DNA of 64,000 nucleotides from Candidatus Poribacteria bacterium (GCA_965218095.1 OZ244587.1:4765203-4829202), one strand, 5' to 3'. Shown: positions 14,287 through 55,722, counted from the stretch's first letter. Notes: generated from the sequence alone by a model not told the origin. Program-made: numbers and translations.

Positions 14287-14295
14287 GAGGGACCG

Positions 14296-14991
14296 ATGCA
14301 AGTCACGAGATGCCGCCTTATCCTGCACGACTCTCTCTACTACGCGACTCGTGAGATGGGGCGACTGTACGAGACGGAGAAGGTCATCCACAATTGGGCG
14401 TTGACGTATGCGCTCGGTTTGATTCAAAAGCCGTATAGATCATTTAACAGCGTTCCAACTTATCAGGAGGACCTCACACCAATCAATGCGGCAGGTGTCT
14501 ATGTGACACCTGCCAAACCGATTCATTATGATTATATAATCAGTACCTTCAAATTCGCGGACAATCGACATCGCCCGTTTTCAACTGTCAGCAATACGCG
14601 AAAAAGGGAGTTGAAGATTACTGTGACGAACAAACCATCTTTCGGCAAGGCGAAGGAACTTGCGCCGGAGAGCGAGTTTGAATTTTTCATCATGGGTAAA
14701 TTGCCCGAACGGGTCCCGAAGTGGATCCGGTTGGGATTGTGGATGAGCAAAGCAAAAATCGAAATCAAAGATCGTCAGGACTTGACCGTTCAACGGGGTC
14801 AATTTACATGTCCTCACTTGTTGAATCCGCTAGATCTTTCAATTCGGCCGCAACTCTATGATCTGATCTCGATGCCGCCGGTGAGTCTTCTTCAAAATGT
14901 GACTTTGACAGGCGAGTACGTTGCGTTTCAGAGAGAGCAAGAAACAGTTTGTTTACCAGCCACAATGAGATATTTTGCAAACTCAACTTAG
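14296..14991 (+). CDS. csc1: Cas5 subunit (Csc1-type, type I-D)
   Basis: 231 aa. TAGGAGGG RBS. Lies between cas7 and cas6 as in I-D operons. Assigned mainly by synteny. Confidence 0.5.
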   Translation: MQVTRCRLILHDSLYYATREMGRLYETEKVIHNWALTYALGLIQKPYRSFNSVPTYQEDLTPINAAGVYVTPAKPIHYDYIISTFKFADNRHRPFSTVSNTRKRELKITVTNKPSFGKAKELAPESEFEFFIMGKLPERVPKWIRLGLWMSKAKIEIKDRQDLTVQRGQFTCPHLLNPLDLSIRPQLYDLISMPPVSLLQNVTLTGEYVAFQREQETVCLPATMRYFANST

Positions 14992-15848
14992 AAAAGTTCA
15001 CCATGCCCATCAGCACCGTTATCTACCTCATCCCCCCCGAAGATGTCACACTTCGTCCGACGATGGGGCATCACGCGCACGCTGCGTTCCTATCGCTGTT
15101 GCGAATTGGCAATCCGGAAAAAGCGGAAGAAATTCACGCCACATCCGCGCAGAAACCGTTTACTGTTTCGCCGCTGATTGGTAAAGGCGAACGACGTGGG
15201 GATTTCCTGCACATCCGCGCTGGAACGGAATGCTGGCTCCGCTTTACGTTCCTCGACGATGAACTCTTCGCCTACTTCGGCAACGCCTTCTTGACACAGC
15301 AACTGCCGTCCATCCGCATCGGACAGGCGATGTTTCAACTCAGCCGATTGAATTCATCTGGGACAGAGGGTAAAGATTGGAGCGGCGCAAGAACCTACGA
15401 AGACCTAATTGAATCTGCGCGGACAGACACTCGGATTCAGATGCGATTCCATTCGCCGACCGCCTTTCGGGAACTGACTCCGCACGGGCGAAAAACACGC
15501 AATCAAGCAAATATTGACCTGCAACGTTGCTATCAGAGTTGGGTCAACAAATGGAATGCCTTCGGACCGATGCAGATTGATAAGCAACGCCTTCTCGATT
15601 TCGTGGTCGGTCACGCCGGGCTGACCACAGTTGAGGCCAAGAGCCGGATGCTCGATTTCGGCAGACATAAGGCGGTCGGATTTGTTGGAAATTGTGCATA
15701 CCAATTTTTCGTGAAGCGTCAATCCGATGATGAGGGTAACATTGAGATGTTACGTTTGGTGAACCTGCTCGCCGATTTCGCCTTTTACTGTGGCACCGGC
15801 TACAAAACGACGATGGGGATGGGACAGACGCGGCGACGACAATCCTGA
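14949..15848 (+). CDS. cas6: Cas6 crRNA endoribonuclease
   Basis: C-terminal glycine-rich loop GTGYKTTMGMGQ typical of Cas6. The start may be the downstream Met at 15003. Confidence 0.75.
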   Translation: MFTSHNEIFCKLNLEKFTMPISTVIYLIPPEDVTLRPTMGHHAHAAFLSLLRIGNPEKAEEIHATSAQKPFTVSPLIGKGERRGDFLHIRAGTECWLRFTFLDDELFAYFGNAFLTQQLPSIRIGQAMFQLSRLNSSGTEGKDWSGARTYEDLIESARTDTRIQMRFHSPTAFRELTPHGRKTRNQANIDLQRCYQSWVNKWNAFGPMQIDKQRLLDFVVGHAGLTTVEAKSRMLDFGRHKAVGFVGNCAYQFFVKRQSDDEGNIEMLRLVNLLADFAFYCGTGYKTTMGMGQTRRRQS

Positions 15849-16208
15849 TCACGAGATTGACATCAGATCGACATCAAGTGCCTCGGCAATCGCCTTCAAC
15901 GTTTTGACGGAACCGGACTTTCGTCCTGTCTCAATCCCCGCTAAATATGCACGTTGAATGCCGGTTTTATCCGCAAGTTGCTTCTGTGTGAGTCCCCGGT
16001 ACTCGCGATACACCTTGATCGGATTCTCCTCATTGAGAATCAGCCGATTAATCACCTCGCCGGGGAAGGTTTCCTCATCAATGGCTTTCGCCCTACGAAA
16101 ATCACGAATGTCTCTAAGCATCTCCGCATCTGCAAGGAGTTGGTCGTAATGCTCTATCGGTACAAGGGCAAATTTCTGACCTTCTATTTCTACTGTTTCA
16201 AGGCTCAT
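15849..16208 (-). CDS. higA: XRE-family HTH antitoxin (HigA-like)
   Basis: HTH LTQKQLADKTGIQRAYLAGIETGRKS. ATGA overlap with the upstream toxin gene. Confidence 0.75.
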   Translation of the reverse strand: MSLETVEIEGQKFALVPIEHYDQLLADAEMLRDIRDFRRAKAIDEETFPGEVINRLILNEENPIKVYREYRGLTQKQLADKTGIQRAYLAGIETGRKSGSVKTLKAIAEALDVDLMSIS

Positions 16209-16462
16209 TTATACACACCGCCTCTCGGTCCAATTTTTACGATTTCAAGTACAAAGGTGTCATCATGGAGTTCATACAGCACTCGCCAGTCACCCACTCT
16301 GAGCCGGTATCCCGGCTCACCTGTTAGGCGTGTTATATTATTGTTCGGCGCGTAAGGATTCTCAGCAAGTTGGTTAATCTTCCCAACAACGGTTTTCGCT
16401 ACATTACTGGGCATCCGCTGGAGCATCTTCATCGCGCTTGCTCGATATCGAATCTGATACAT
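16205..16462 (-). CDS. higB: RelE/ParE-family toxin (HigB-like)
   Basis: ...KLTGEPGYRLRVGDWRVLYELHDDTFVLEIVKIGPRGGVYK is a RelE/ParE signature. The toxin-first order is typical of higBA. The start is set at the internal Met; the ORF track extends to 16501. Confidence 0.75.
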   Translation of the reverse strand: MYQIRYRASAMKMLQRMPSNVAKTVVGKINQLAENPYAPNNNITRLTGEPGYRLRVGDWRVLYELHDDTFVLEIVKIGPRGGVYK

Positions 16463-16547
16463 GATGCCCCTTATTGTAGCTAAAAGCAACCTGAAAATCA
16501 AGCATTTCCGTTACACACCCCGTTCCACAAATCTGGAGTATTAAACC

Positions 16548-18230
16548 ATGTCCGAAACCTACATACCGCTTTCGCAGATAAACACCTATGTCTTCTGCCC
16601 GCGCCGATTCTACTACGAATCCGTTGAGGGCCATCAGGTGATTAACGAGCATGTCGAAGAGGGGAAGATCAAACACGCCCGCGTTGATACGGAGATGAAA
16701 GGTCGCAACGAGCGCGGGGTGAAGGTCTCGCGTCGACAATACCTCGCCTCTGATGCACTTGGTGTCTCCGGTTATCTCGATCTAATTGAAGAGAAGGACG
16801 GTGTGCCGTATCCGGTCGAATACAAGAAAGCCGGCACCGGCAACTGGCTCAACGATCAGGTTCAACTCTGTCTACAAGGGATGCTAATCGAAGAGAGCAC
16901 TGGCATTGAGGCGCCTCACGGCTATATCTACTACATCGGCTCCAAACGCCGCCGAAAGGTGGTCTTTGATGACGAACTGCGGCAGACCAGTCTCGACTTT
17001 GTCTCTAACGCCGAATCGCTGTTGCAGACAAGAAAGATTCCCGAACCGGTCCACGACAACCGGTGTAACGGGTGTAGCGTCCGAGGCATCTGTCTTCCAG
17101 ACGAGGTTGCCTATCTCCATGAATTAGACGATCGACCAAAACGCATCAAACCTGTGCTTGGGATCGATAACGTGCTGTATGTCGATGAAGCGGGCTGTAT
17201 ACTCAAAAAAACTGGGGAACGCCTGCTCGTTGTCAAAGAGGGAGAAACCATCCGCGACATTCCGCTCATCCATCTCGGCCAGGTTGTGCTTTGTGGCAAC
17301 ATCAGTGTGACGACCCCGGTGATGCAAACCCTGCTCAACGAGGGGATTCCGGTTGTTTACCTGTCTGCGTACGGACGCTATCAGGGAACGCTTACGCCGA
17401 AAATCTCCCGAAACTCACTCCTGCGCGTCGCTCAACATCGGATCGCGGATGACCCGGAAAAGTGCCTCGCGCTCGCGAAAGCGTTTGTACATGGCAAAAT
17501 CACGAACATGCGGATGATGCTCCAGCGTCGGAAATGGCGGAACAGAACGACCAACGACAAAGATCTCGATTGCGAAGTTGAAACAAACGGAATCGAAACT
17601 GAGGACAGGCACGCCGACATTTTATCGAGCATTAAGGGACTCGCTGCGATGCGCCGGAAGATTCCCAAAGCGGAACGGCTCCCTGAACTGCTTGGTATTG
17701 AAGGTAACGCCTCTGCCGCGTATTTCCAATCGTTTTCCGCCATGCTCAAACCAGAAATGGGATTTGACTTTGAACGCCGCTCCCGCCGACCACCCGCGGA
17801 TGCGACCAATTCGTTGCTTAGTTTTGCCTACTCGCTATTGACAGCGGATCTGATTTCCGCCATCCAGCTTGTCGGACTCGACCCATACGTGGGGTTCTTC
17901 CATCAACAGAATTACGGGCGTCCCTGCCTCGCATTAGACCTCATGGAGGAGTTCCGTCCGATCATCGCCGATTCAGTTGTGATTACGCTCATCAACAAAC
18001 GGCAGATTAAACCGGATGACTTCACCCAATCGCACGGCGGCTGGTTCCTCAAAGACGCCGCCCGCAAGCGGTTCTACGCCGCCTACGAGGGACGCAAAAA
18101 TGAGACGATTACACACCCTGTCTTCAAGTACAAAATCAACTTTCGCCGTGCAGTCGAATTACAGGTACGATTGCTTGCCAAGTGTCTAATGGGAGAGATT
18201 GAAACCTACACGCCGCTGACAGTTCGATAG
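16548..18230 (+). CDS. cas4-cas1: Cas4-Cas1 fusion protein (adaptation)
   Basis: N-terminal Cas4: Cys in FCPRRFYY plus the C-terminal CNGCSVRGIC cluster (4-Cys Fe-S), and a PD-(D/E)xK core (DLIEE...EYKK). C-terminal about 330 aa is Cas1-like. Confidence 0.85.
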   Translation: MSETYIPLSQINTYVFCPRRFYYESVEGHQVINEHVEEGKIKHARVDTEMKGRNERGVKVSRRQYLASDALGVSGYLDLIEEKDGVPYPVEYKKAGTGNWLNDQVQLCLQGMLIEESTGIEAPHGYIYYIGSKRRRKVVFDDELRQTSLDFVSNAESLLQTRKIPEPVHDNRCNGCSVRGICLPDEVAYLHELDDRPKRIKPVLGIDNVLYVDEAGCILKKTGERLLVVKEGETIRDIPLIHLGQVVLCGNISVTTPVMQTLLNEGIPVVYLSAYGRYQGTLTPKISRNSLLRVAQHRIADDPEKCLALAKAFVHGKITNMRMMLQRRKWRNRTTNDKDLDCEVETNGIETEDRHADILSSIKGLAAMRRKIPKAERLPELLGIEGNASAAYFQSFSAMLKPEMGFDFERRSRRPPADATNSLLSFAYSLLTADLISAIQLVGLDPYVGFFHQQNYGRPCLALDLMEEFRPIIADSVVITLINKRQIKPDDFTQSHGGWFLKDAARKRFYAAYEGRKNETITHPVFKYKINFRRAVELQVRLLAKCLMGEIETYTPLTVR

Positions 18231-18541
18231 CGGTTGTAGGGGCAATGCCTTGTGCTTGCCCATAGTAGAGGTGAGATTGAAACCTACACGCCGCTGACAG
18301 TTCGATAGCGGTTGTAGGGGCAATGCCTTGTGCTTGCCCATAGTAGAGGTGAGATTGAAACCTACGCGCCACTGACAGTTCGATAGCGGTTGTAGGGGCA
18401 ATGCCTTGTGCTTGCCCATAGTAGAGGTGAGATTGAAACCTACGCGCCACTGACGGTTCGATAGCGGTTGTAGGGGCAATGCCTTGTGCTTGCCCATAGT
18501 AGAGGTGAGATTGAAACCTACGCGCCACTGACGGTTCAATA
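18194..18541 (+). repeat. 78-bp tandem repeat, about 4.4 copies, starting inside the last codons of cas4-cas1
   Basis: Unit GAGATTGAAACCTAC(A/G)CGCC(G/A)CTGAC(A/G)GTTCGATAGCGGTTGTAGGGGCAATGCCTTGTGCTTGCCCATAGTAGAGGT, with starts at 18194, 18272, 18350, 18428 and 18506. Each unit contains two hairpins and the 11-mer GAGATTGAAAC, identical to the 3' end of the CRISPR repeat. Confidence 0.9.
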
Positions 18542-18561
18542 GGCTGTCGGAGGAGAAACCG

Positions 18562-18834
18562 ATGTTTTACGCAGTTGCCTATGATATTACCAATGACCGG
18601 CGGCGAAACGCAGTTGCCAAAATTTTGCTAGATTTCGGCACACGCATCCAATATAGTATATTTGAGTGCAACACCGATCGACGCGCTTACCTCCGGCTAC
18701 AAGATCGGCTTCAGGATGCCATCAATCCCAAGGAGGATGCTGTGACTTTCTATCATCTCTGCCGGTCCTGCGAGAAGGGGATCGAACGGATTGGTATCAA
18801 AAAAGGAATTGACAAAGCCGCGTATATCGTTTAG
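18562..18834 (+). CDS. cas2: Cas2
   Basis: MFYAVAYDITNDRRRNAVAKILLDFGTRIQYSIFEC is canonical Cas2. 90 aa. GGAGGAG RBS. Confidence 0.85.
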   Translation: MFYAVAYDITNDRRRNAVAKILLDFGTRIQYSIFECNTDRRAYLRLQDRLQDAINPKEDAVTFYHLCRSCEKGIERIGIKKGIDKAAYIV

Positions 18835-19066
18835 CATCCAAATCGGGCATAAGGGCATTCGGGTTCGGAAAACTCAACTGTCAACCGCTGAGCTAACAAA
18901 AAGCGAAGTGTCCGACAGGATCGGTGAAGAGACTGTTATGATAGGGGTTTGACGATGTACCTTTTTGAAAATCGCCCATTTCAACTGGATCAACAACTGA
19001 AACATCCAAGTCTGACAGAAAGCAGTGTTCAAAATGCTTGCTGTTACTGGCTTTCAAATGGTCGCT
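18835..19066 (+). promoter_or_regulatory. CRISPR leader region
   Basis: Non-coding 230 bp between cas2 and the first repeat. The conserved repeats are at this end; the degenerate repeats are at the far end. Confidence 0.6.
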
Positions 19067-22000
19067 CGATCAATGATAAGAATCTCGATTACGAGATTGA
19101 AACGCAAATATCGTGAAAATGGCGGGGTTGTATGGGTGGACGATCAATGATAAGAATCTCGATTACGAGATTGAAACATGTCAACGAAACGGTACAACAA
19201 CTCGCCGATGATGCGATCAATGATAAGAATCTCGATTACGAGATTGAAACGTAAAAGGTGGGAGATGCCCCCAGCTGGGTTGCTGGGCGATCAATGATAA
19301 GAATCTCGATTACGAGATTGAAACTACATTAATAATGAGCCGCTCCGCGACTTTGGTGGTGACGATCAATGATAAGAATCTCGATTACGAGATTGAAACA
19401 AATATCATCGGGATGATCTACCAATTTATCCGCAATCGATCAATGATAAGAATCTCGATTACGAGATTGAAACCAACGCTCGGGTTGCGACATCGACACT
19501 CCCAAACCCTCGATCAATGATAAGAATCTCGATTACGAGATTGAAACGCATCAGTAATGATATACTCCGACGAAGCGAACCTGTCCGATCAATGATAAGA
19601 ATCTCGATTACGAGATTGAAACTACATTATGATAGCAATGGCAACCACAACGGCTATACGATCAATGATAAGAATCTCGATTACGAGATTGAAACTCACC
19701 GGTGCTAACGACATCCGACGGAATACCCGGCTCGATCAATGATAAGAATCTCGATTACGAGATTGAAACCAGGTGAGGGAATCGCTTTCAGATCGCGAGA
19801 TACGCACGATCAATGATAAGAATCTCGATTACGAGATTGAAACATAATCCTCAGCATCATACGCTTCAAACGGTTTAATCGATCAATGATAAGAATCTCG
19901 ATTACGAGATTGAAACGGAACGCCGGCGCTGCATACAGTGTTTAATCGCGCCTTCGATCAATGATAAGAATCTCGATTACGAGATTGAAACACTGCCATG
20001 CTTTCCAGAGAGTCATAGTGCGGTCGCCGATCAATGATAAGAATCTCGATTACGAGATTGAAACTGAGACAACCTGTACTTTTCAATCCTCCAGTGAACA
20101 CCGATCAATGATAAGAATCTCGATTACGAGATTGAAACGACAAAGAGCGGATCAGAACTCTCCTCAGTATCCCCGATCAATGATAAGAATCTCGATTACG
20201 AGATTGAAACGACAGCCTCCGAGAAGAAGCCCGACGACTCAACATCACCCCCGCGATCAATGATAAGAATCTCGATTACGAGATTGAAACCTGGGTGGAA
20301 CGGCGCAATGGGATAGCGACGAATTTCGACGATCAATGATAAGAATCTCGATTACGAGATTGAAACACATGGCATGGAAACTCGGGCTGATGGGAATCTG
20401 GGATCGATCAATGATAAGAATCTCGATTACGAGATTGAAACAAGTCCAAAATCGTCCCGTCCAGCAACAACACCTCTAAAACGATCAATGATAAGAATCT
20501 CGATTACGAGATTGAAACAGAGATTCGCTGGGAATTAGGCGCATCCTCATCGAGGCGATCAATGATAAGAATCTCGATTACGAGATTGAAACTACCACGA
20601 CCGCGAAGGGCGCCCCCGACAGTATCTTCCGATCAATGATAAGAATCTCGATTACGAGATTGAAACCAAGTACCACTTCGATGTTGCCACTCACCGTCGC
20701 GGTGTTCGATCAATGATAAGAATCTCGATTACGAGATTGAAACCAGCAAGTCAGGGTACGATTTGCGAGTCTGCCCGATGACGATCAATGATAAGAATCT
20801 CGATTACGAGATTGAAACAAAACGGTAGGACCAACAACGAAATTTGGACAGGCAGCTCGATCAATGATAAGAATCTCGATTACGAGATTGAAACTGTAAA
20901 CGATAATGACGATCTTGAAGTCGGCACACAATTCGATCAATGATAAGAATCTCGATTACGAGATTGAAACAGCTATAACCAAGACCGCATCCTGATTCCG
21001 ATGGAGATTCGATCAATGATAAGAATCTCGATTACGAGATTGAAACAAGTCCAAAATCGTCCCGTCCAGCAACAACACCTCTAAAACGATCAATGATAAG
21101 AATCTCGATTACGAGATTGAAACGACTGAGTTCTATCGAGAATACCCGTCAACGCCGGAGGACGATCAATGATAAGAATCTCGATTACGAGATTGAAACT
21201 CCCCGTCGTCGCCGCAGACAGCGCACCCGACGCCCCGATCAATGATAAGAATCTCGATTACGAGATTGAAACGCGAAACGTGCGATTTCTCTGCCGAAGC
21301 GGATGGAGATACGATCAATGATAAGAATCTCGATTACGAGATTGAAACCAGCGAATATCTTGGGACCCATCCTCTGCTGATCGTATCATCGATCAATGAT
21401 AAGAATCTCGATTACGAGATTGAAACGAAGGGCACACCATTGATGTACAATCGATAATCGAACTCGATCAATGATAAGAATCTCGATTACGAGATTGAAA
21501 CCACTGGGGCATCCATCAGTACCGATTGAGATATACGAATCGATCAATGATAAGAATCTCGATTACGAGATTGAAACTTGTGATCCACCTGCGCCCATCG
21601 CGCTATCTGCCTGTCGATCAATGATAAGAATCTCGATTACGAGATTGAAACACAGGCACGATTTCAGGAAAGACGGTCATCCCGTTTGACGATCAATGAT
21701 AAGAATCTCGATTACGAGATTGAAACGAGATTCAACAGATCCCGCGCTGCACCCCGCCGTCCCGACGATCAATGATAAGAATCTCGATTACGAGATTGAA
21801 ACTACCATGCCAGAAATAGCGGTTCAAAGTTGCTTTCGCGATCAATGATAAGAATCTCGATTACGAGATTGAAACACAGACGCATCATCGGTATCGGGGT
21901 CAACCACCGCTTCCGATCAATGATAAGAATCTCGATTACGAGATTGAAACTTCTATAATCCAAATAGTTCAAAAATACTCAGTGTTCGATCAATGATAAG

Positions 22001-23940
22001 AATCTCGATTACGAGATTGAAACCGTTGAAAGGTGGGAATATGGCAAAGATTCAATTAGGCGATCAATGATAAGAATCTCGATTACGAGATTGAAACAAC
22101 ATCATCAAACGGCAGGATAAATTCACCCGATGTTGCGATCAATGATAAGAATCTCGATTACGAGATTGAAACTCAAGGCATTTACTCCTTCGAGGGATGG
22201 CGGGCTGAGGAGCGATCAATGATAAGAATCTCGATTACGAGATTGAAACCAGTGGCTGCTTCGTTGCGCGGATACCACCGCTTGCGATCAATGATAAGAA
22301 TCTCGATTACGAGATTGAAACGCGGCGGTGAGTTACTTTCCCTTGTTCAATCCGGCTACCCGATCAATGATAAGAATCTCGATTACGAGATTGAAACCGG
22401 AACTGGATCAACTGACTGAGCAGGGTAAGCAGAACGATCAATGATAAGAATCTCGATTACGAGATTGAAACTAACGTCTCGCGTCTCATGTTCCGCGTCT
22501 GCCGGTGCGATCAATGATAAGAATCTCGATTACGAGATTGAAACTGGTGCGCAAGTGCTGGGTGCGCGTGCGGGTCGTGCCAAGCGATCAATGATAAGAA
22601 TCTCGATTACGAGATTGAAACAGCCGTTGGTATCACGTCTTTGTGGGTTTCGTCAACGATCAATGATAAGAATCTCGATTACGAGATTGAAACGAAACCA
22701 ATAATCGTGTACCATTTTTGATACGATTCGCCACGATCAATGATAAGAATCTCGATTACGAGATTGAAACTCTGAAGATTTCAGCGTTATCAATCAAATA
22801 CGCTTTACGATCAATGATAAGAATCTCGATTACGAGATTGAAACAGAAATGACTTCCCATTCGGAACGTGGCAAGTTTATACGATCAACGATAAGACACT
22901 CGATTGCGAGATTGAAACAAACCCAAACCAGAGGCATGGATAAAGTGTGGATAACGATCAACGATAAGAATCTCGATTACGAGATTGAAACATGAATGAA
23001 CACCACCAGAAGATTTGTTGATGGCTGTACGATCAACGATAAGAATCTCGATTACGAGATTGAAGCTGCTGAGCTCTCACCATGTGGAAGTCGGCGTGAA
23101 GCGATCAACGATAAGACACTCGATTACGAGATTGAAACTTCCCACACCTCTCGTGGCAGTGTCTGAGGTTCAGGGAACGATCAACGATAAGACACTCGAT
23201 TGCGAGATTGAAACGGGGGTGGTATTGTATTTGTTGCGTGAGTCCGTGTTTTCGATCAACGATAAGAATCTCGATTACGAGATTGAAACCCGCAGCCGGC
23301 GGAGCGGAGAATACAGCGCATTCAACGATCAATGATAAGAATCTCGATTACGAGATTGAAACTTATCAGACAGTACCACTTCAAGCCCATTTAATCTGCG
23401 ATCAACGATAAGAATCTCGATTACGAGATTGAAACAGCGGTGCAAACCGATTAAGGCGCCAGGCCTCGAACAACGATCAACGATAAGAATCTCAATTACG
23501 AGATTGAAACATGGTAGAGGGTAAGAAAGCTCACCAGATGGAGATCGCCGCCGATCAACGATAAGACACTCGATTGCGAGATTGAAACAGTTTCGATTTG
23601 ACTCCCATCAGTTTGACTCCTTTTTTTTGTGCATGCACAAGAAAATTCGCCGCACGATCAACGATAAGATTCTCGATTACGAGATTGAAACGTGGAAAAC
23701 AGATGAAATACAAAAAGCCATCGGAAACTCCCGATGCTTCTGTTGAAGTCGGCGTTGAAAAAGATGCTGTTGATGGATTCTCTTACGGTGTTCTGGAGCG
23801 AGTCACGGTATTGAGTCCATGCGGACCTCGGATCAGGGAATCGATACCTGTTGCCTCCCACGACGTAAGAAATGAAGCGCGAGTTGCGGCGGGGGAAACA
23901 GAACAACCTACGATAAGACTCTCGATTACGAGATTGAAAC
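19067..23940 (+). CRISPR. CRISPR array: about 65 copies of the 37-nt repeat CGATCAATGATAAGAATCTCGATTACGAGATTGAAAC, with spacers of about 34-38 nt
   Basis: Read directly. The repeat contains the hairpin AATCTCG-atta-CGAGATT followed by the ATTGAAAC 5'-handle. Repeats from about 22883 onward carry substitutions (CAACGAT, GACACTC, GATTGCG, GAAGC). The terminal relic repeat at 23909-23940 is preceded by an aberrant 217-bp interval. Confidence 0.97.
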
Positions 23941-24188: not shown

Positions 24189-25361
24189 TTGAAATTTGAC
24201 GCCCAGCGAGCGTATTATTATATTGCCCAGCTTGCCTTTCCAAGGGCGGTTGGCAGCGCGGGAAAATCCAAAGCACGGGCTTATATCGTCAAGCAACTTA
24301 CACAGCTCGGATTAAGCGTGGAGCAGGAGGCGTTTGACTTTACCTTATTTCCCGCCGAGGTCTTGCCTCGCTTGATCTCGGCGGCCTACACCGTTGGCGT
24401 GATAGGCGTTTGCTGGCTGAGTGGCAACCGACCAACAGGCGCCAGCCTTTTATGCGTCGGTATGTTGGTGATTGCCCTATCGCTAACGCGCTGGCAGAAA
24501 AGACTGGAATGGCTCTATAATGTTGGCAGAGCACACACGTCAAAAAATATCGTCGCCACAAGTACGCCATCTATTGGTGCAAATTTCGATTTCATCTTCG
24601 TCGCGCATTACGACTCCAAGTCGCAGGTGCTGTCGATTGCAGTGAGGGCGTTATGTTATTATGTTGCCGTCGTTGGTTTAATCGGATTGACGCTGCTAAT
24701 GCTCATTCAGATGTCTCCTTTGAAGGTCACATTGTCCTTGCCTTTGATCTGGCCGATTGGTGTCTCTATCTGTCTTTGCCTCCTGCTCTTGCAATTCAAC
24801 TTCACGCAAAACGGTTCCCCCGGCGCATTTGACAATGCCTCTGGTGTTGGTGTCTTGCTGGAGCTCGCCCGTTGCCTTGCAGCACAGCCGCTGACCAACA
24901 AGGTGCGCCTGACTTTCCTATCGCCAGGGGCTGAAGAGTACGGGATGTGCGGCGCCCTGCGCTACATCCAACGGCACGCGGAAACCTACCATCCGGATCG
25001 GACTTACGTCATCAACCTCGACAGCCTCGGCGCGAGCGGAAAACTGACCCTTATCACACGCTACGGAATTCCACCTGTGGCGACAAGCAGAAGCCTGGGT
25101 CAAGCCATTATCGCATACGGGAGGGAAATTGGCGTTGAAGTTTCGGAGATCTATTCGCTGACAGGTGTTGGATTCGATCAGATTCCAATTGCCAGTCGCG
25201 GATTTGAAGCTGTAACACTGTCGTCGGGCGGATTTGGTGGGGCTGCCTTAAAAATTCACTCCAAACGCGATCGAATCGATCTGATTCACGAGGACAGCTT
25301 ACAGCAGGTTGGGGATGTGCTCGTGCATTGTGTGGAACGGGAATACAAGATGCAGATCTGA
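24189..25361 (+). CDS. M28-family zinc aminopeptidase with internal membrane segments
   Basis: HYDS, DNASG and EE(Y) zinc-ligand blocks. Hydrophobic stretch in the middle. Confidence 0.65.
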   Translation: MKFDAQRAYYYIAQLAFPRAVGSAGKSKARAYIVKQLTQLGLSVEQEAFDFTLFPAEVLPRLISAAYTVGVIGVCWLSGNRPTGASLLCVGMLVIALSLTRWQKRLEWLYNVGRAHTSKNIVATSTPSIGANFDFIFVAHYDSKSQVLSIAVRALCYYVAVVGLIGLTLLMLIQMSPLKVTLSLPLIWPIGVSICLCLLLLQFNFTQNGSPGAFDNASGVGVLLELARCLAAQPLTNKVRLTFLSPGAEEYGMCGALRYIQRHAETYHPDRTYVINLDSLGASGKLTLITRYGIPPVATSRSLGQAIIAYGREIGVEVSEIYSLTGVGFDQIPIASRGFEAVTLSSGGFGGAALKIHSKRDRIDLIHEDSLQQVGDVLVHCVEREYKMQI

Positions 25362-25396
25362 ATCCTGAATCTCTGAATCCACGAAGGGTCATTCAA

Positions 25397-26038
25397 ATGC
25401 AAAATCACATGGAAGCAACCACGGGCGTCATCCTCGCCGGTGGATGCAGTCGCCGGATGGGGCAGAACAAGGCGTTGATGCGTTTGGGAAATGAGGCGAT
25501 CATCGCCCATGTCGTCCGCCAGATGCGAGCCGTCACAGATGAGCTCCTGCTAATCACGAATACGCCAGAACTATACGCTCATTTGGGCTTGCCGATGCAT
25601 GCGGATATCCTGTCAGACATGGGCACATTAGGCGGCATCTACACCGGGCTGACTTACGCTGTAAACAGCACCGCGCTCTGTGTCGGCTGCGATATGCCAC
25701 TGTTGCAGCCGAATCTCTTATCTCACCTGATTGCCATCTTGGGAGAATATGATGCTGTCGTTCCATGCGTGAAAAAAGTTAATCGACCTGTCCCCATCTT
25801 CCAAACGCTATCCGCCGTTTATTCCAAACGGTGTTTGCCGGTCATCGATCAGATGCTCGCGGAGGGAGAATTGCGCGTTCATGCGCTGTACGAGCGAATC
25901 TCCGTCCGTATCGTCGAACCCAATGAATGGCAGGCGCTTGATTTACAGGGACTGTCGTTTTTCAATATTAACACACCTGAAGATTTTGAAAAAGCAAAGC
26001 AGATGAAGATGGAGGGAAATGGCCATGCTAAGTGTTGA
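25397..26038 (+). CDS. mobA: Molybdenum cofactor guanylyltransferase MobA
   Basis: GVILAGGCSRRMGQNKAL motif. The start is taken at Met 25397; the ORF track extends to 25328. Confidence 0.8.
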   Translation: MQNHMEATTGVILAGGCSRRMGQNKALMRLGNEAIIAHVVRQMRAVTDELLLITNTPELYAHLGLPMHADILSDMGTLGGIYTGLTYAVNSTALCVGCDMPLLQPNLLSHLIAILGEYDAVVPCVKKVNRPVPIFQTLSAVYSKRCLPVIDQMLAEGELRVHALYERISVRIVEPNEWQALDLQGLSFFNINTPEDFEKAKQMKMEGNGHAKC

Positions 26039-27227
26039 AGAAGCGCGTAAACGAATGCTGGACACCATTACCGTTTTATCCACAGAGACGTGCAGCATTT
26101 CAGACAGCCTTGGGTATGTGCTTGCCGAGGGTGTCTATGCCAGCGAGAACATACCACCGTTTCACAACTCAGCGATGGATGGCTTCGCTGTGATTGCCGA
26201 AGATATATCAAACGCTTCCAAAGATTGCCCGGCCCAGCTTTCAGTCATTGAAATCATCCCGGCGGGATATGCGCCGACTAAGCGAGTTGTGCGGGGACAA
26301 GCGGCGCAAATCATGACCGGCGCCATGATGCCCGAAGGTGCGGATGCCGTTGTGATGAAGGAAGTGACGCAGTTGGAAGGGGATGAAGTCACAATCTTTG
26401 AGGGGATAGAAAAAGATGGAAACGTCCGGTTCACAGGCGAAAGTGTGAAGCAGGGCGATCTGGTCATGTCCAGAGGGAAGCTCATCCGTCCGCAGGAGAT
26501 CGCGATGTTTGCTTCGCTGAACCGATCGGAAGTGAAAGTTTACAGATGTCCAAAAGTCGCGGTGGTTTCCACGGGCGATGAGCTCACGCCGCTCGGCGAG
26601 GCGCTGAAGCCGGGTAAGATTCGGGATAGCAACCGCTACGGCATCTGCGCACAGATCGAAGAGGCGGGGTGTTATCCGATTGACATGGGAATTGCCCGTG
26701 ATGATGAGGCAGAGACAGAACGCAAGTTCCGCGATGCGTTGGATCAGGCGGACGCGCTCATCACCAGCGGCGGCGTTTCTGTTGGAGAATACGATGTGGT
26801 CAAAACGGTGCTATCCAGGCTCGGTGAGATCAATTTCTGGCGAGTGGCGATGAAGCCGGGAAAACCGCAGGCTTACGGCATCGCTGACGGCAAGCCAATC
26901 TTCGGATTGCCGGGGAATCCGGTGTCTTCGCTGGTTGTGTTTGAGCTCTTTGTCCGTCCAGCTCTGCTCAAAATGGCGGGTCACGCCAGCCTACTTCGTC
27001 CGACCTTCAAAGCAGTTTTGGAAGAAGGTGTCGTCAACAGAGATGGGCGGGTCAGCTATATGCGGTCGATCATCACACCGTGTGACGGGAAGTATTACGC
27101 GAAGACGACGGGACCACAGGGTTCGGGCATCCTCTACTCACTTGTCTTGGCGAATGGCTTTATTGTTATTCCGCCGGGAGCAGCGATGAAGGCTGGCGAA
27201 GTCGTGGAAGCGCAGTTTATGGGATAA
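26019..27227 (+). CDS. moeA: Molybdopterin molybdotransferase MoeA
   Basis: MoeA N-terminal, MoCF-binding (GGVSVGEYD) and C-terminal domains. Overlaps the mobA stop. Confidence 0.85.
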   Translation: MAMLSVEEARKRMLDTITVLSTETCSISDSLGYVLAEGVYASENIPPFHNSAMDGFAVIAEDISNASKDCPAQLSVIEIIPAGYAPTKRVVRGQAAQIMTGAMMPEGADAVVMKEVTQLEGDEVTIFEGIEKDGNVRFTGESVKQGDLVMSRGKLIRPQEIAMFASLNRSEVKVYRCPKVAVVSTGDELTPLGEALKPGKIRDSNRYGICAQIEEAGCYPIDMGIARDDEAETERKFRDALDQADALITSGGVSVGEYDVVKTVLSRLGEINFWRVAMKPGKPQAYGIADGKPIFGLPGNPVSSLVVFELFVRPALLKMAGHASLLRPTFKAVLEEGVVNRDGRVSYMRSIITPCDGKYYAKTTGPQGSGILYSLVLANGFIVIPPGAAMKAGEVVEAQFMG

Positions 27228-27573
27228 GCATGGGTTTGTGCTCGCGTTAAGGAATGGTCACCTGCATTTGCTGAAGTATCGCGATCGGGGGCCCTGTAGA
27301 TCAGGAAGGCGAACACGATTGTATGGTTCTGGAGGATTCTGCAGCAAAGCCTGAAATTGTGTTCTAATTTCAGGGAGGTAGCGGTTATAATTTGTCACCA
27401 TTCGTCCATCTGTTGATGTTCACTATCCCCGAAGGACTTGTTTGATGCTTGCGTCGCTTGGATCTACTTCGATAACCAAATCACCACAACGGCGTCCTAC
27501 ATAATCCTTTACCTCCGATCGCAAGGGACGCGCAATCTATGTGCTTTCCTGCTATTCATCACGTTTCACGCAT

Positions 27574-28406
27574 CACGCCTCCGGTATCTCGATCGGCAGA
27601 TCCAGCCGATCTCCCCACTCTTTCCACGACCCAATATAGTTGCTGACTTTCGGGTAGCCCAAAAGCCGCAGCGCTAGATAGCCGTGGGAAGAGCGGTATC
27701 CGCCCTGTCAGTAGGACATGACGCACTTTTCTGGCGTAATGCCTGCGGACTCGTAGAGCGTTCGGAGTTCAGCGGCAGGTTTGAACATGCCACCTTCGTC
27801 CAAGTTGTTGAGCCATTCGATATGGATGGAGCCGGGAATCGCGCCCCCTCGCGCAGATCTCGCAACGTGTGCGTAGTGCTCCGCATCGGTGCGCGTATCG
27901 AGGACAGCAAAGTCATCTTGATTGAGCATGGCATGGATGGTATCTGCGTCTATATGGGCGTCCGGTTTTGCATCGGTCGGGAATGACGGAACATCCGATG
28001 GCTCGACGCCTTCGGTGCTTATTCCTCCTCCTGCGGCGAGCCAAGCACTGAATCCACCGTCTAACACGCGGACATCTTCGTGCCCCAAATACTCGCAGAA
28101 CCAGAACCCACGTGCAGCACAAACGCCCGACGTGTTTTCGTACCAAACGATTGTTTTTGTCGGGTCAACCCCACGGTCTCGGAAAAGGTAAGCGATCATC
28201 CACATAAAAGCGTTGAACGGCTTTTCGCTCGTGTCGTTGAGACTGATTGCGAACAGATCGAGATGAATTGCGCCGGGGATATGCCTTTCGATATACTTGC
28301 GCGTTGGGCGCGTATCCACAATACATACTGAGCCATCGTCGAGTCGGTTCATCAATTCTTCGGCGGAAATCAGTAACTGTGGATTAACATAGCCTTTGTC
28401 ATTCAT
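27574..28406 (-). CDS. Tandem-domain rhodanese (thiosulfate/3-mercaptopyruvate sulfurtransferase) with an in-frame TGA at the catalytic Cys position. Candidate Sec-rhodanese, or a pseudogene
   Basis: The ORF track stops at the TGA (27708-27710) after ...PEKCVMSY. Continuing in frame gives [44 protein letters not shown]. The combined SY-[TGA]-QGGYRSSH aligns with the rhodanese active-site loop YC(R/Q)xGxRSS. Confidence 0.6.
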
Positions 28407-28452: not shown

Positions 28453-29559
28453 CTAAAGCAAGACATTTCTTAGCTCAGTTGCACGCAGGATCTTGCATCC
28501 ATCAACCTCTATCGGTTCTTCAGCACCCCTACCATGGATTTCCTCTTGTAAGCGTTTCCACAATCCATTATCGCAAAAGGCGTGAGGTAGTTTATCATCT
28601 ACTACGCCAAAAAATTCAAAGTGGTTTGCTATATCTTCGACAGTCCAACTGGGCAAATTGTTCTGCTGGATGGAAAGGGCGATGGGGTGAATCTGTTCAG
28701 CACTAGGAGGGTGAGACAAGGTAAGGTGTTTGAGGACTATTTCTTTCCCTCTTGCATGTATTTCTTCGAGTGTCTTGTTTACCCATTTCAGATAACAAAT
28801 TTGACCATATGTCCTCTTCAAAGACTGATACCACCCCATCTTATCAAACATGTGACTCATTATTTCCCGAGAGATTATGAATCTGTCAATATTCCTTTCC
28901 TCTTTTCGCCTGTGTTTTGAGATCTGCATCTTTCCATCAAAGACCAAAGGATCTGGCTTCTCGTGGTGTAATGCGTGACAATAAGCGCACATGACACTAT
29001 AGTGCTCTTGTATAAAATCCTCATCGTGAGGAGAAGTTTTATATATTTCATCCTCAATACCCTCGTTGTGGTGAACATGCCAGGTGAATGGACTGTTCTG
29101 CTCCCTTTCGCGACAATCCTTGCACATAGACTTTTTGTTTTTGTCCTCACTAAGGCAACTTTTTATTCTCTCTATAATTCGATCGTGGGTATAGAAGCCG
29201 GGCTCGTAATCCTCATATTTCAAATAACCACCCTCTAAAGTGTCGATAAAGTCAACTCCGTAAACATCTAAATCCAAAAGTTTGATCCTATACTGTTCTA
29301 TACTTAATGGCAGGATTGCCCTGACTATAAACACATGGGATTTAAAACGAATAGGCTTCAAATCCTTATAAAGGCTGATAGGGCTGTGACTAGTAGTTGC
29401 TTCAGCCTTTTTTATTGCTATTTTCTTGGCATCTGTATCACTCTCAGCTCGGATAGGCCATTTCTTCAAGCACTTAAAAGACTGTATTTCTTCCTCGCTT
29501 TCCAAATTTTCTTCCTTACTTGTAATAATTTTCTCAAGGATAGCCTCAAAAGACTTCAT
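28453..29559 (-). CDS. HNH endonuclease domain protein in an AT-rich islet
   Basis: CKDC...WHVHHNEGIEDE...MCAYCHALHH (CxxC...HH...N...CxxCH..H). The flanks at 28440-29800 are markedly AT-rich. Confidence 0.6.
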   Translation of the reverse strand: MKSFEAILEKIITSKEENLESEEEIQSFKCLKKWPIRAESDTDAKKIAIKKAEATTSHSPISLYKDLKPIRFKSHVFIVRAILPLSIEQYRIKLLDLDVYGVDFIDTLEGGYLKYEDYEPGFYTHDRIIERIKSCLSEDKNKKSMCKDCREREQNSPFTWHVHHNEGIEDEIYKTSPHDEDFIQEHYSVMCAYCHALHHEKPDPLVFDGKMQISKHRRKEERNIDRFIISREIMSHMFDKMGWYQSLKRTYGQICYLKWVNKTLEEIHARGKEIVLKHLTLSHPPSAEQIHPIALSIQQNNLPSWTVEDIANHFEFFGVVDDKLPHAFCDNGLWKRLQEEIHGRGAEEPIEVDGCKILRATELRNVLL

Positions 29560-29807: not shown

Positions 29808-31106
29808 TTACGTCGATCCAATCGTCTCAATACCACCCATGTAAGGCGTGAGAACTTCTGGAATGCGAATACTTCCATCTTCCTGCTGATACGTTTCGAG
29901 GATTGCGATAACCAATCGTGGTAGTGCGGTCCCTGATCCGTTGAGGGTATGAACAAATTCTGGTTTTGCGCCTAGTTCACGACGGAAGCGGATATTTGCG
30001 CGACGCGCTTGGAAGTTTTCAAAGTTGCTGCACGACGAGATTTCCAGACTGAACTTTTCCTCCGTAACCGCCCATAATTCAATATCGTAACATTTTGCAG
30101 CAGCAAACGTCAGTTCGGCTGTACAGTGTTGGACGATCCGGTAGGGAAGCCCTAGGGCTTGTAAAACATCTTCAGCATCGGTCAGTAGCGATTCATGTTC
30201 ATCGTAAGACGTTTCAGGGAGGGTAAACTTCACCATTTCGACCTTATCGAACTGATGGATACGCTGCAATCCCCGTGTTTCACGGCCGTAAGAACCTGCC
30301 TCACGACGGAAACAGGGCGTGTATGCAGTATAGTAGATTGGGAGATTTCTGCCCTCTAAAATTTCCTCAGCAAAGATGTTGGTGACAGGAACTTCAGCCG
30401 TTGGAATGAGAAAGAGATCGCCGGCTTCGTCCGCTTTGTTCCGGTCGCATCGGTACATATCCTCCTCAAACTTGGGCAACTGTCCCGTGCCGGTCATCGC
30501 CGGACGGTTGGCAACAAAAGGAGGGGAGATTTCGGTGTAGCCGTGTAGGGTAATGTGCATATCAAGCATGAAGCTGATGAGCGCACGCTCCAGTTTCGCA
30601 CCTAACCCCTTGAACAACACAAAGTTGCTGCCGGCCAGCTTTGTGCCCCGCTGAAAGTCGATGATATCCAACGCCTCTGCAAGCTCCCAGTGGAGTTTTG
30701 GTTCAAAATCGAAGGTTCGGATTTCTCCCCATTGCTTAATTTCAGGGTTATCCGCTTCGCTGCTCCCGATCGGTGTACTTGAATGCGGCATGTTCGGAAT
30801 GTTCATCAAAATCTCATCCACTTCATTTTTATAGATTTGCGCCTGCTCATTCAACGTCTTGATCTTCTGAGAGACGTTTTTCATCTCAGCAATCTGATCG
30901 GAGGCATCCTGCTTGTTTCTCTTGAGTTGAGCGATTTCCTTTGAAATTGTGTTTTGATAGCTTCTTAACGACTCCACCTCCCCCAACAGTGTACGCCATT
31001 TGCGGTCAGCCTCAATGAGTTGATCTAACGGCACTGTCATCCGCCGATGTGCTAACATCGCTCGCACCACATCGGGGTTTTCGCGAATGAATTTGAGATC
31101 TAACAC
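29808..31106 (-). CDS. serS: Serine--tRNA ligase
   Basis: [12 protein letters not shown]... N-terminal coiled coil. Class II aaRS core. 432 aa. Confidence 0.9.
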
Positions 31107-31186: not shown

Positions 31187-31188
31187 AA

Positions 31189-31264
31189 CGGACCCGACGG
31201 GATTTGAACCCGCGATCTTCTGCGTGACAGGCAGATGTGTTAAGCCAGGCTACACTACGGATCC
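31189..31264 (-). tRNA. tRNA-Asp (anticodon GTC)
   Basis: Minus strand reads GGATCCGTAGTGTAGCCTGGCTTAACACATCTGCCTGTCACGCAGAAGATCGCGGGTTCAAATCCCGTCGGGTCCG. Cloverleaf with anticodon loop CTGTCAC. CCA is not encoded. Confidence 0.85.
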
Positions 31265-31283
31265 GAGTAAGGATTTCAATTTT

Positions 31284-31360
31284 TGGTAGGCGGGACAGGG
31301 CTTGAACCTGTGACCTACGGCTTGTAAGGCCGTCGCTCTGGCCAACTGAGCTACCCGCCC
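31284..31360 (-). tRNA. tRNA-Val (anticodon TAC); CCA is encoded
   Basis: Minus strand reads GGGCGGGTAGCTCAGTTGGCCAGAGCGACGGCCTTACAAGCCGTAGGTCACAGGTTCAAGCCCTGTCCCGCCTACCA. Confidence 0.8.
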
Positions 31361-37432: not shown

Positions 37433-38698
37433 TCACTTCTTCCTCAGACAACACTGTTTGTACTTCTTGCCACTGCCGCAGGGACAGGGCGAATTACGGC
37501 CGACTTTCTGCGGGACTTCCACCTGTTCGGGGTGCATCAATGGCATAATGCTATCAGCGGGGCGTCCTGCTTGCAGCGCGGCAGCCATCATTTTCATCGG
37601 TCGGTCAGTGTGGTTGAAGAACATCTTATAGCCCGCGCAGAGATAGTTCAAACCGTCTTCGCCGCTTGGTGTTTTGATGAAACGGTTTTTCGGGCAGCCG
37701 CCGTTGCAGACGAAACGAACTTCGCAGTCCCGACAATACTGCGGCAAGGTGTCACGCTTGTCCGTCCCAAACTTCCGCTGGAATGGTGAGTCCACCAAGT
37801 CCTCCATCGGCGTGTCCATTACATTTCCGAGGAAGTATTCCGGATCAACGTAGTGATCACAAGAGTAGAGATCGCCGTTATGCTCAATTGCCATTGCGTT
37901 CCCGCAGGTCTCGTTGAAAATACATAAGCTCGGCTGATAGCCTAGCCAGCCTTCCAGGGCAACATCGAAGATCTGGACAAAGATCTTCCCAATATCGTTC
38001 ACAACCCACTCATCGAAGATTTCACAGAGGAATTTGCCGTACTGCTTCGCGTGTACCGAGCGATCTGTCACACCCCTCTCACCCACGCGCTCGACAGCGG
38101 GGATAAACTGCATGAACTGAACGCCAAGTTTCTTGAAGTAGTGGTACACCTCACGCGGATAATCTCCATTGTGGCTATTGACAACGCAGAGAACGTTATA
38201 ATCCACGTTATGCTTCTGTAGAAGCCGAAGTCCCCGAAGGACATCATCGGAGGAAGGCCTGCCCCTTTTGTCGTAGCGGTACTTATCGTGTAATTCAGGG
38301 GGTCCATCAATACTAATGCCGATCAGGAAGTTGTGCTGCTTGAAGAAAGTACACCATTCATCATTCAGGAGCGTGGCATTGGTCTGGAACGTATTCTGGA
38401 TGCGCATACCGGGGCGTCGGTATTTCTTCTGATATTCGACAGCGCGTCGGAAAAAGTCAACGCCCATCAACGTTGGTTCGCCGCCTTGCCAGGCGAAGGT
38501 AACTTCATTGACCTGCTGGGTTTCGATATATTGACGCACATAATTTTCCAGGACCGCATCAGTCATCCGAAATGAGTGCGTATTGGGGTAGAGTTGCTCT
38601 TTATCCAAATAGAAGCAATATTCGCAGTCCAGATTACAAATTGCCCCAATCGGTTTGGTCATCACATGAAACGCACGCGGGGTTTTGTATTCAATCAT
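37433..38698 (-). CDS. Radical SAM/SPASM maturase of the anaerobic sulfatase-maturating enzyme (anSME) type, with a C-terminal SEC-C metal-binding motif
   Basis: CNLDCEYCFY (CX3CX2C). Cys-rich SPASM region. Terminal SPCPCGSGKKYKQCC. Confidence 0.7.
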   Translation of the reverse strand: MIEYKTPRAFHVMTKPIGAICNLDCEYCFYLDKEQLYPNTHSFRMTDAVLENYVRQYIETQQVNEVTFAWQGGEPTLMGVDFFRRAVEYQKKYRRPGMRIQNTFQTNATLLNDEWCTFFKQHNFLIGISIDGPPELHDKYRYDKRGRPSSDDVLRGLRLLQKHNVDYNVLCVVNSHNGDYPREVYHYFKKLGVQFMQFIPAVERVGERGVTDRSVHAKQYGKFLCEIFDEWVVNDIGKIFVQIFDVALEGWLGYQPSLCIFNETCGNAMAIEHNGDLYSCDHYVDPEYFLGNVMDTPMEDLVDSPFQRKFGTDKRDTLPQYCRDCEVRFVCNGGCPKNRFIKTPSGEDGLNYLCAGYKMFFNHTDRPMKMMAAALQAGRPADSIMPLMHPEQVEVPQKVGRNSPCPCGSGKKYKQCCLRKK

Positions 38699-50882: not shown

Positions 50883-51377
50883 TATAATTTACCTGATACT
50901 TATCCAGAAATAAATCAAGGTGTTTTCTTGCTTCCAATTCATTTGTGCCCCTGTATATTGGATATCCTTGGCATTTACCATCAGGAAAGCGCAGAATTCC
51001 ACTGATAATCCAATAACCAGAATCCTATATCAATTTAACAGCCTCTAAATGCTCATCATCCACAAAAGTACTACCTCCCTTAAACTCCCTTAAAACCAGT
51101 AAGAGTTATTTTAGCACACCTCCTTTCAGATTGCCCCGGATCTGATCACGACTGAGATCTAGCGTTTTTTTGTTTGACAAGACTTCGTTGGGTTTGCTAC
51201 AATATGCAATGCATGTGGCTACCCCTAGCTGCCACACCAGGGATAGCCTCAAGCCGAACAACCAAGTTCGTTAGGAGCGCCCCCATTGGTTGAGCGACTT
51301 TGGTATATTATAACGCATTTCTACCCTAAAACAGAAAAAAAATATAGAAATTGCCATAATATCACCGAAATATACCG

Positions 51378-51428
51378 AAAAAAAGGCGGGATCGCTCAAA
51401 TTCTGACGCGATCCCGCCTTTTTTTTGT
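51378..51428. terminator. Bidirectional rho-independent terminator located where the HsdM homology stops
   Basis: AAAAAAA then GGCGGGATCGC-tcaaattctga-GCGATCCCGCC then TTTTTTTTG. Confidence 0.6.
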
Positions 51429-51831: not shown

Positions 51832-51871
51832 TTTCGGGATGGTTCTCCTGCGGTTGTATGGGAGGGCACGT

Positions 51872-52255: not shown

Positions 52256-52265
52256 ATCATGTCCT

Positions 52266-52950: not shown

Positions 52951-53015
52951 ACCTAATATCTCCCAATTAAAATTAAGACTTTAACAAGCAATTGGCAATC
53001 AAATTACACTTAATT

Positions 53016-53804: not shown

Positions 53805-53825
53805 CTGCTCAAGCTGCTCTGCCTC

Positions 53826-55699: not shown

Positions 55700-55722
55700 T
55701 TTTTATCACTTTACGTTAATAA

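Follow-up and report, generated by a model that had tools for sequence, protein, structure and literature searches.

Does the rhodanese gene on the minus strand of a 64,000-nucleotide (nt) stretch of a Candidatus Poribacteria genome (GCA_965218095.1, OZ244587.1:4765203-4829202; this whole stretch is hereafter the window) end at the TGA codon that closes its listed open reading frame (ORF), or is this codon, which falls at the catalytic position of the enzyme, translated? A reading of the DNA made previously from the window alone (hereafter, the sequence-only reading) recognized the gene correctly, leaving its strand unstated, and proposed that it encodes a selenocysteine (Sec) sulfurtransferase, unless it is a one-base pseudogene. 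Judging from the comparison with related genes described below, this is very probably an intact gene for a two-domain rhodanese-type sulfurtransferase in which the catalytic residue is Sec.

An in-frame UGA at the catalytic position of a two-domain rhodanese

The listed ORF (27708..28406) encodes 232 amino acids (aa), from the ATG at 28406-28404 to the end ...PEKCVMSY, immediately before the TGA. The same frame continues beyond this codon for 44 codons, rather than the 43 previously counted, to a second TGA at 27576-27574, so that the complete minus-strand coding sequence consists of 232 aa, UGA-233, and 44 aa, that is, 276 sense codons followed by the terminal TGA. The features of the gene are as follows.

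27574..28406, minus strand: full coding sequence of the putative selenoprotein, a two-domain rhodanese gene (translation, two rhodanese domains, frame open throughout in orthologues)
28417-28413, minus strand: Shine-Dalgarno-like AGGAG, 6 nt 5' of the ATG (read from the sequence)
28035..28367, minus strand: N-terminal rhodanese domain, aa 14-124 (best PF00581 stretch and alignment with RhdA, 1E0C)
27591..27959, minus strand: C-terminal catalytic rhodanese domain, about aa 150-272 with approximate boundaries, interrupted by the UGA in the annotation (second PF00581 stretch)
27690..27710, minus strand: active-site loop U-Q-G-G-Y-R-S with the UxxG motif (translation and homologue alignment)
27710-27708, minus strand: in-frame UGA, codon 233, proposed Sec codon at the catalytic position (TGA across orthologues; aligned with the active-site Cys of RhdA)

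When the read-through product, with Cys substituted for the stop, was compared with Pfam, two tandem PF00581 domains were detected (E=1.5e-37). The best homologue with a solved structure is RhdA of Azotobacter vinelandii (PDB 1E0C; E=1e-38), aligned over query residues 10-274, and full-length alignments were also obtained with the structures of the Thermus rhodanese and SseA. The protein thus shares the two-domain architecture of RhdA and of the two-domain thiosulfate/3-mercaptopyruvate sulfurtransferases over its whole length, the N-terminal domain being the non-catalytic one in RhdA-type enzymes. The UGA site aligns with the cysteine of the RhdA active-site loop (msyCQGGYRS in the read-through product, vthCQTHHRS in RhdA), such that the loop C-Q-T-H-H-R-S of RhdA corresponds to U-Q-G-G-Y-R-S here, with Cys replaced by Sec and different residues within the loop. 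An assignment of this related protein to the SseA (3-mercaptopyruvate sulfurtransferase) orthologues was rejected because the score against the NCBIfam equivalog NF008557, 113.7 bits, is below the 250-bit cut-off.

Conservation of the TGA and selection on the downstream codons

A search of 5.8 billion proteins produced 4651 homologues of the rhodanese, among which the best 120, with 52-90% identity to the query, were inspected. The great majority of these (97/120) stop at the residue before the catalytic Cys, with the ending ...V[MLV][CSA]Y, and most are 231-234 aa long, a few with longer N-termini extending to 259 aa; GenBank records such as MCZ6678161.1 and MDE0301021.1 annotate only this fragment, of 232-233 aa. 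The remaining 23 are full-length (274-299 aa), and all of them contain [YHF]-C-QGGYR at the site. The claim that the TGA coincides exactly with the catalytic Cys codon is therefore confirmed, both by the RhdA alignment and by the Cys in the 23 full-length homologues.

Genomes were scanned at one per species (GTDB) with a query alignment that ended before the site, and the best 80 loci were taken; because the query stops short of the site, this choice is unbiased with regard to TGA versus TGC. TGA is found at the site in each of the 80 species-level loci, nearly all of which come from Candidatus Poribacteria, and TAA, TAG, TGC, and TGT never appear there. A metagenome scan seeded with Cys-type proteins, along with four Cys-type loci that were fetched directly, served as the control set; this set added 19 UGA-type loci and 65 Cys-type loci (TGC or TGT) from soils, sediments, and sea water. 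The alignment of orthologues, which had been suggested as a check, separates a set of nearest loci that are all TGA from other homologues with Cys at the same position, and the same TGA is retained at protein identities down to about 53%.

The region past the TGA evolves as a coding sequence. Across 97 unique sequences, the 44 downstream codons show entropies of 0.28, 0.11, and 0.88 at codon positions 1, 2, and 3, respectively, the ratio of synonymous to nonsynonymous codon differences is 2.6:1, compared to 1.13:1 upstream of the TGA, and no in-frame stop was found. In the listed pairs, protein identity is 81-98% downstream of the TGA vs 61-81% upstream. This substitution pattern shows that the 44 codons after the UGA are subject to strong purifying selection in frame. 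With TGA in all 80 relatives and a conserved frame beyond it, the choice between a selenocysteine sulfurtransferase and a one-base pseudogene falls strongly in favor of the former. One argument of the sequence-only reading, that a TGA shared by the interrupted ORF and the true end fits recoding, carries no weight given that the true terminator varies among the 80 orthologues between TAA, TAG, and TGA (the latter in 22).

Truncation at this site is also seen farther afield. Nine more representatives of 50%-identity clusters (P0141, P0147, P0163, P0189, P0214, P0221, P0225, P0232, and P0265), which are 34-53% identical to the query, end just before the catalytic Cys, with termini such as ...VVPF, ...IAPY, ...VVCF, ...IIAH, and ...VVTY. 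By this sequence criterion, they are probably further unannotated Sec-type lineages, and the existence of at least nine such representatives suggests that Sec forms are widespread in the rhodanese superfamily. When all the loci and the window were scanned for further conserved ORFs interrupted by TGA, nothing came up besides the rhodanese and its antisense frames, and none of the long TGA-split ORFs listed in the window was convincing as a selenoprotein gene.

Two RNA structures accompany the UGA

RNA positions are counted here from the U of the UGA as position 1, so that the window coordinate equals 27711 minus the position. Structures were counted in 93 unique Sec-type and 61 unique Cys-type sequences, and pairing over whole helices was tallied on 43 non-redundant Sec-type sequences; the 93 distinct UGA-type sequences come from sponge symbionts, soils, and sediments. 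The following predicted structures are considered.

27615..27696, minus strand: H1, an 82-nt extended hairpin, +15..+96, with its apex at about 27658-27654 (folding and covariation)
27696-27689 CCGCUCUU with 27622-27615 AAGAGUGG, minus strand: P1, the basal helix of H1, 15-22/89-96 (pair probability and compensatory pairs)
27591..27611, minus strand: H2, a 7-bp hairpin, +100..+120, GAUCGGC / GCCGAUC, with the 7-nt loop UGGAUCU at 27604-27598 (candidate SelB-binding hairpin)
27690..27706, minus strand: small hairpin, 5-11/15-21, loop 12-14, which competes with P1 for nt 15-21

Folding of 120 nt from 76 Poribacteria sequences yielded the long hairpin +15..+96, with a mean pair probability of about 0.93 for P1. 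In the window, H1 has a minimum free energy (MFE) of -43.4 kcal/mol (z=-5.77), and none of 200 shuffled sequences is as stable. The probability of P1 exceeds 0.5 in 93/93 Sec-type sequences compared to 1/61 Cys-type sequences (Fisher's exact test, p ~2e-42, ignoring phylogeny), and the median z of the segment +12..+99 is -4.26 in the former vs +0.23 in the latter. H2 behaves in the same manner: its probability exceeds 0.5 in 90/93 Sec-type vs 3/61 Cys-type sequences, and the median MFE of its segment is -12.7 vs -4.3 kcal/mol (-12.5 in the window). The loop of H2 reads U-G-G-A-U-Y-U, with G109 present in all 93 Sec-type sequences; the loop base G108 and G105, both at synonymous sites, are likewise G in 93/93 Sec-type sequences, compared to 25/61 Cys-type sequences in each case. 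These counts show that two predicted structures, H1 with its basal helix P1 and H2, occur in nearly every UGA-type gene and are missing from nearly every Cys-type gene.

The pattern of base changes points to pairing. The compensatory pairs of P1 are 18-93 and 21-90. For Ser 19-21 and Lys 88-90, only the codon combinations UCU with AAA or UCC with AAG are found in Sec-type sequences, so that pair 21-90 is either U-A or C-G. For Arg 16-18 and Glu 91-93, the Sec-type combinations are CGC with GAG, CGU with GAA, and CGU with GAG; the mismatching CGC with GAA (C-A) is absent from all 93, whereas it is the most common combination, 31/61, among the Cys-type genes. Similarly, the H2 pair 102-118, in which a synonymous change at the third base of an Asp codon goes together with an Ile/Val replacement, is C-G in 50 and U-A in 43 of the Sec-type sequences, without a single mismatch, and is a C-A mismatch in 36/61 Cys-type genes. 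For P1 and H2 combined, 98.8% of the cells in the 43 non-redundant sequences are paired, and double changes occur in 4 of the 15 pairs (38 cells); none of 500 shuffles matches this, and controls with a slid register are 37-54% paired.

The small hairpin corresponds to the GGCGG-AUA-CCGCU element of the sequence-only reading, which does exist (+7..+19) and extends to 5-11/15-21 but begins 3-4 nt after the UGA, not 5. As a conserved selenocysteine insertion sequence (SECIS), it was rejected. Although 93.5% of its cells are paired in the 43 non-redundant sequences, and the hairpin is enriched in the Sec type (83/93 vs 15/61 in the Cys type), there is no compensatory change, and the helix is broken in several Sec-type sequences, at A5-U21 in 8/43 and at G6-C20 in 9/43 (U21>C or G6>A, resulting in Ser UCC or Gln CAA); U21>C covaries with A90>G in P1, not with A5, and it is the other structures that track the UGA. 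The small hairpin may be an alternative conformation that competes with P1, or may simply result from the constraint on nt 15-22. A 3-bp hairpin at 28-38 was also rejected, its loop being devoid of G and unconserved.

Three Cys-type loci stand apart. L082:3763-3900, from Ca. Limnocylindrales, retains the long hairpin (P1 probability 0.97, z=-4.0) and is not among the three Cys-type loci in which H2 folds; L105 and L122, which have TGT at the site, one step from TGA, retain H2 (probability 0.96) but not P1. All three look like relics of the signal, consistent with recent Sec-to-Cys conversions followed by decay.

Comparison with the bacterial SECIS consensus

In the consensus model of Zhang and Gladyshev, a bacterial SECIS (bSECIS) has an upper stem of 4-16 bp with an apical loop of 3-9 nt, a G within the first two positions of the loop, usually followed by G or U, a spacing of 16-37 nt between the UGA and the loop, and an MFE of at most -7.5 kcal/mol; some bacterial selenoprotein genes do not fit this consensus and may represent distinct classes (PMC13188914). 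H2 agrees with all of these properties except the spacing, with its 7-nt loop on a 7-bp stem, G-G at loop positions 2-3, and an MFE at or below -7.5 kcal/mol in 93/93 Sec-type sequences. It also resembles the fdhF-type bSECIS of E. coli in being a coding-region stem-loop 3' of the UGA, with a 7-bp stem and a G-G loop, but differs in that the G-loop is 103 nt away from the UGA, with the 82-nt hairpin between them. A further resemblance is that the structured RNA starts 11 nt after the UGA, the spacing that the minimal SECIS of E. coli reportedly requires, a result ascribed to Liu et al. in 1998.

The other two structures are also outside the 16-37 nt range, the apex of H1 at 49 nt and the small hairpin at 7-8 nt from the UGA. 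No positionally conserved consensus hairpin was found within 16-37 nt, any compliant hairpin being present there in 30/93 Sec-type vs 20/61 Cys-type sequences. H1 begins 11 nt after the UGA, and H2 begins 3 nt after H1, so that, with H1 closed, the path from the UGA to the loop of H2 is 11+3+7 = 21 nt. The loop comes to lie within the consensus range only along this path, which passes over the closed H1.

A possible split recoding signal

We propose, tentatively and at somewhat less than even odds, that the Sec-type rhodanese genes of COG2897 employ a distinct, split class of bSECIS, in which H1, closed by P1, would deliver H2 to the mRNA entrance of the ribosome. The more limited statement that H2 is the SelB hairpin and is positioned by P1 would, in this structural model, have a chance approaching one in two. 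Under this scheme, when the ribosome reaches the UGA, the mRNA structure would recruit SelB·GTP·Sec-tRNA(Sec), and Sec would be inserted at UGA-233 instead of termination. H1 would close on itself, placing H2 at an effective distance of 21 nt from the UGA, with P1 acting as a clamp and H2, as the SelB-binding hairpin, located beside the mRNA entrance as long as the UGA occupies the A site. The likely reason for such a layout would be that the codons after the UGA encode the invariant active-site loop and cannot also encode a canonical SECIS; H2 would instead be encoded in the less constrained C-terminal tail. In the mature enzyme, sulfane sulfur (or selenium) would be carried on Sec233 as Se-S(H), in analogy to RhdA and rhodanese with their Cys persulfide.

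A split SECIS would explain why changes at the foot of H1 are either absent or compensated whereas the interior of this hairpin drifts, why the loop G is fixed at a synonymous site, and why the signal is kept off the codons of the invariant active-site loop. There is an engineered parallel. Ribosomes that serve to make selenoproteins in live E. coli have been built with a minimal SECIS grafted onto helix h16 of 16S rRNA (PMC10945757), which suggests that spatial rather than linear proximity of the SECIS may suffice. In these SECIS-16S rRNA fusions (RiboU), as in the arrangement proposed for the rhodanese, the SelB hairpin is near the mRNA entrance without being contiguous with the UGA; the difference is that RiboU is engineered and acts in trans, whereas the proximity in the rhodanese mRNA would be achieved in cis, via a predicted natural long-range helix.

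How the UGA is read

Among the alternatives to Sec, the one that survives best, while still unlikely, is recoding of the UGA to another residue, either Cys, inserted by a SelB-dependent tRNA(ReC)-type tRNA, or Trp, Cys, or Arg, inserted by near-cognate read-through. The comparative data demonstrate translation of the codon and an RNA signal associated with it, not which residue enters. Furthermore, the base directly 3' of the UGA is always C in the related sequences, and in E. coli a UGA followed by C terminates weakly. There is also a precedent in the tRNA(ReC) systems, which recode UGA with a downstream SECIS (PMC13582414). Nevertheless, a catalytic nucleophile that alternates between UGA and Cys is the hallmark of selenoproteins, among which this family is already catalogued, and H2 carries the loop features of SelB-binding hairpins; Trp or Arg as the catalytic residue would abolish activity, which is at odds with the strong purifying selection on the domain.

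It is less probable that the TGA is a true, conserved stop, with a functional product of 232 aa that lacks the catalytic loop, the region downstream being maintained as an RNA element or a small ORF. Public annotations give exactly this product, of 232-233 aa, and a conserved RNA structure is indeed present downstream. However, that region evolves as a coding sequence in the same frame, with third-position variation, the excess of synonymous changes and no stops in the 97 sequences, and, as in the Cys-type homologues, its product supplies the half of the catalytic domain that the 232-aa protein lacks; moreover, neither TAA nor TAG ever replaces TGA at the site, in contrast to the free variation of the real terminator. 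A recent nonsense mutation or a sequencing error, making the gene a one-base pseudogene, is more improbable still: a single change from TGC or TGT to TGA would suffice in one genome, but the presence of TGA in all 80 species-level genomes and in the 19 environmental loci, with an intact and selected downstream frame, already refutes it. Finally, although some uncultured bacterial lineages reassign UGA, genome-wide reassignment to a sense codon has a vanishingly small probability and is refuted by the finding that TGA terminates 11/30 Pfam-supported genes in the window, including the rhodanese itself, as well as the 22 orthologues mentioned above, which shows that UGA is an otherwise ordinary stop in the window.

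With these alternatives weighed, we hold with high confidence, on comparative grounds, that the UGA is decoded, the product being a Sec (or Sec-site) rhodanese. For the phylum, the literature supports Sec decoding: Ca. Poribacteria WGA-3G has two hits to COG1921 (SelA) and one each to COG3276 (SelB) and COG0709 (SelD) (Slaby et al. 2017, Table S4, PMC5649159), and Sec-type group 4 hydrogenases have been reported in Poribacteria (PMC13582414).

Several observations weigh against the selenoprotein interpretation or the proposed form of its signal. ARAGORN detected no tRNA-Sec in the 64-kb window or in the 84 fetched loci, and Pfam scans of 40 window ORFs contained no SelA, SelB, or SelD, so the case for the Sec machinery in the source genome is built on the phylum-level literature. 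The structural contrast between the Sec and Cys types was counted without phylogenetic correction. No match to a SECIS or any other Rfam family was obtained for 27520-27780 at E-values up to 10. In the linear sequence, the 103 nt between the UGA and the loop of H2 exceed the consensus spacing. The interior of H1 shifts register between lineages, with 82% of the cells paired on the full structure derived from the window. Lastly, the split geometry and the choice of H2 by SelB, as modelled here, go beyond the comparative association between the structures and the UGA.

Genomic neighbourhood and other features of the window

The rhodanese gene appears to be monocistronic, and its neighbourhood offers no functional clue. 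Downstream and convergent to it are genes for MobA (25328-26038) and MoeA (26019-27227); upstream are a 368-aa ORF (28453-29559), seryl-tRNA synthetase (29808-31106), tRNA-Asp, and tRNA-Val. An operon with the molybdenum cofactor genes was considered and rejected, given that MobA and MoeA are convergent with the rhodanese and that MoeA is adjacent to it in only 43/80 loci.

Seryl-tRNA synthetase, which attaches serine to tRNA-Sec, is encoded two genes upstream on the minus strand, and it lies within 10 kb upstream of the rhodanese in 26/80 loci; this is probably coincidental synteny. The tRNA-Asp and tRNA-Val genes (31188-31360, minus strand) are the only tRNA genes in the window. The 368-aa ORF, also on the minus strand, has no Pfam hit and a GC content of 40.5%, compared to 48.5% for the window; by eye, its Cys/His-rich motifs look similar to those of an HNH nuclease. 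None of the 80 related loci contains this ORF, which is, accordingly, probably a recent insertion.

Farther away, the window contains a type I-D-like CRISPR-Cas locus (8237-18230) that encodes a Cas3 helicase, a 1020-aa ORF without Pfam hits, Csc2, Cas6, and a Cas4-Cas1 fusion. The Cas genes are followed by a long CRISPR array (18195-22850) with the 37-nt repeat CGATCAATGATAAGAATCTCGATTACGAGATTGAAAC; this array accounts for the lack of ORFs at 18.5-23.6 kb. Its first part (18195-18542), which overlaps the 3' end of the Cas4-Cas1 ORF, holds 4.5 copies of a 78-nt unit with 98% identity; this unit has only GAGATTGAAAC in common with the CRISPR repeat, and the copies look as though a single unit of repeat and spacer had been duplicated repeatedly. 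Elsewhere, a cluster for type I restriction-modification (51271-58830, minus strand) consists of an N-terminal fragment of HsdM, two HsdS ORFs, and a 966-aa HsdR, with a Fic/DOC protein (54509-55699) embedded in it. Two radical SAM/SPASM proteins are encoded at 37433-38698 and 61730-62950 (minus strand), the first of which ends in a SEC-C metal-binding motif.

Known relatives and implications

Sec-containing rhodaneses had been mentioned in the sequence-only reading as known from environmental selenoproteomes, and correctly so: the rhodanese-related sulfurtransferase COG2897 was one of 15 new selenoprotein families described in the Sargasso Sea study of 2005, where it was represented by three sequences (PMC1088965). 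In a 2026 review, five forms of rhodanese selenoproteins are recognized, and form 4, the one that comes from the Sargasso Sea study, has the motif UxxG (PMC13188914). The gene analysed here resembles form 4 by motif and family, with the PF00581 fold, Sec at the position of the catalytic Cys and UxxG in the version U-Q-G-G; the published representatives of this form are AACY01016424 and MCY3690685.1. The Sargasso Sea family was identified by the pairing of Sec and Cys forms in environmental sequence. It and the present gene differ in scale, three sequences in 2005 compared to a form that is universal here in the 80 nearest species genomes, and in that the Sec-specific RNA structure of the rhodanese does not fit the consensus bSECIS model used in the Sargasso Sea work.

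This rhodanese belongs to an already known selenoprotein family, and the Sec call is an annotation correction rather than a discovery: the records behind the 97 truncated homologues give a fragment of 231-259 aa without the catalytic half of the domain. The new element is the architecture of the recoding signal, which is strongly supported although non-canonical, and which looks like a well-supported example of a distinct SECIS class beyond the consensus.

If the split signal operates as proposed, it would relax the textbook rule that the bacterial SECIS immediately follows the UGA, and bacterial Sec decoding would depend on the three-dimensional, not the linear, proximity of this element. Gene finders limited to a SECIS at 16-37 nt would then consistently overlook these genes or model them wrongly. 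The rhodanese would also show how Sec can precede a sequence that is too constrained to encode a SECIS, and would provide a simple, testable design rule for recombinant selenoproteins. As for the organisms themselves, the occurrence of the Sec form in all 80 nearest genomes, nearly all of them from Poribacteria, bears on the handling of selenium and sulfur in sponge symbionts.

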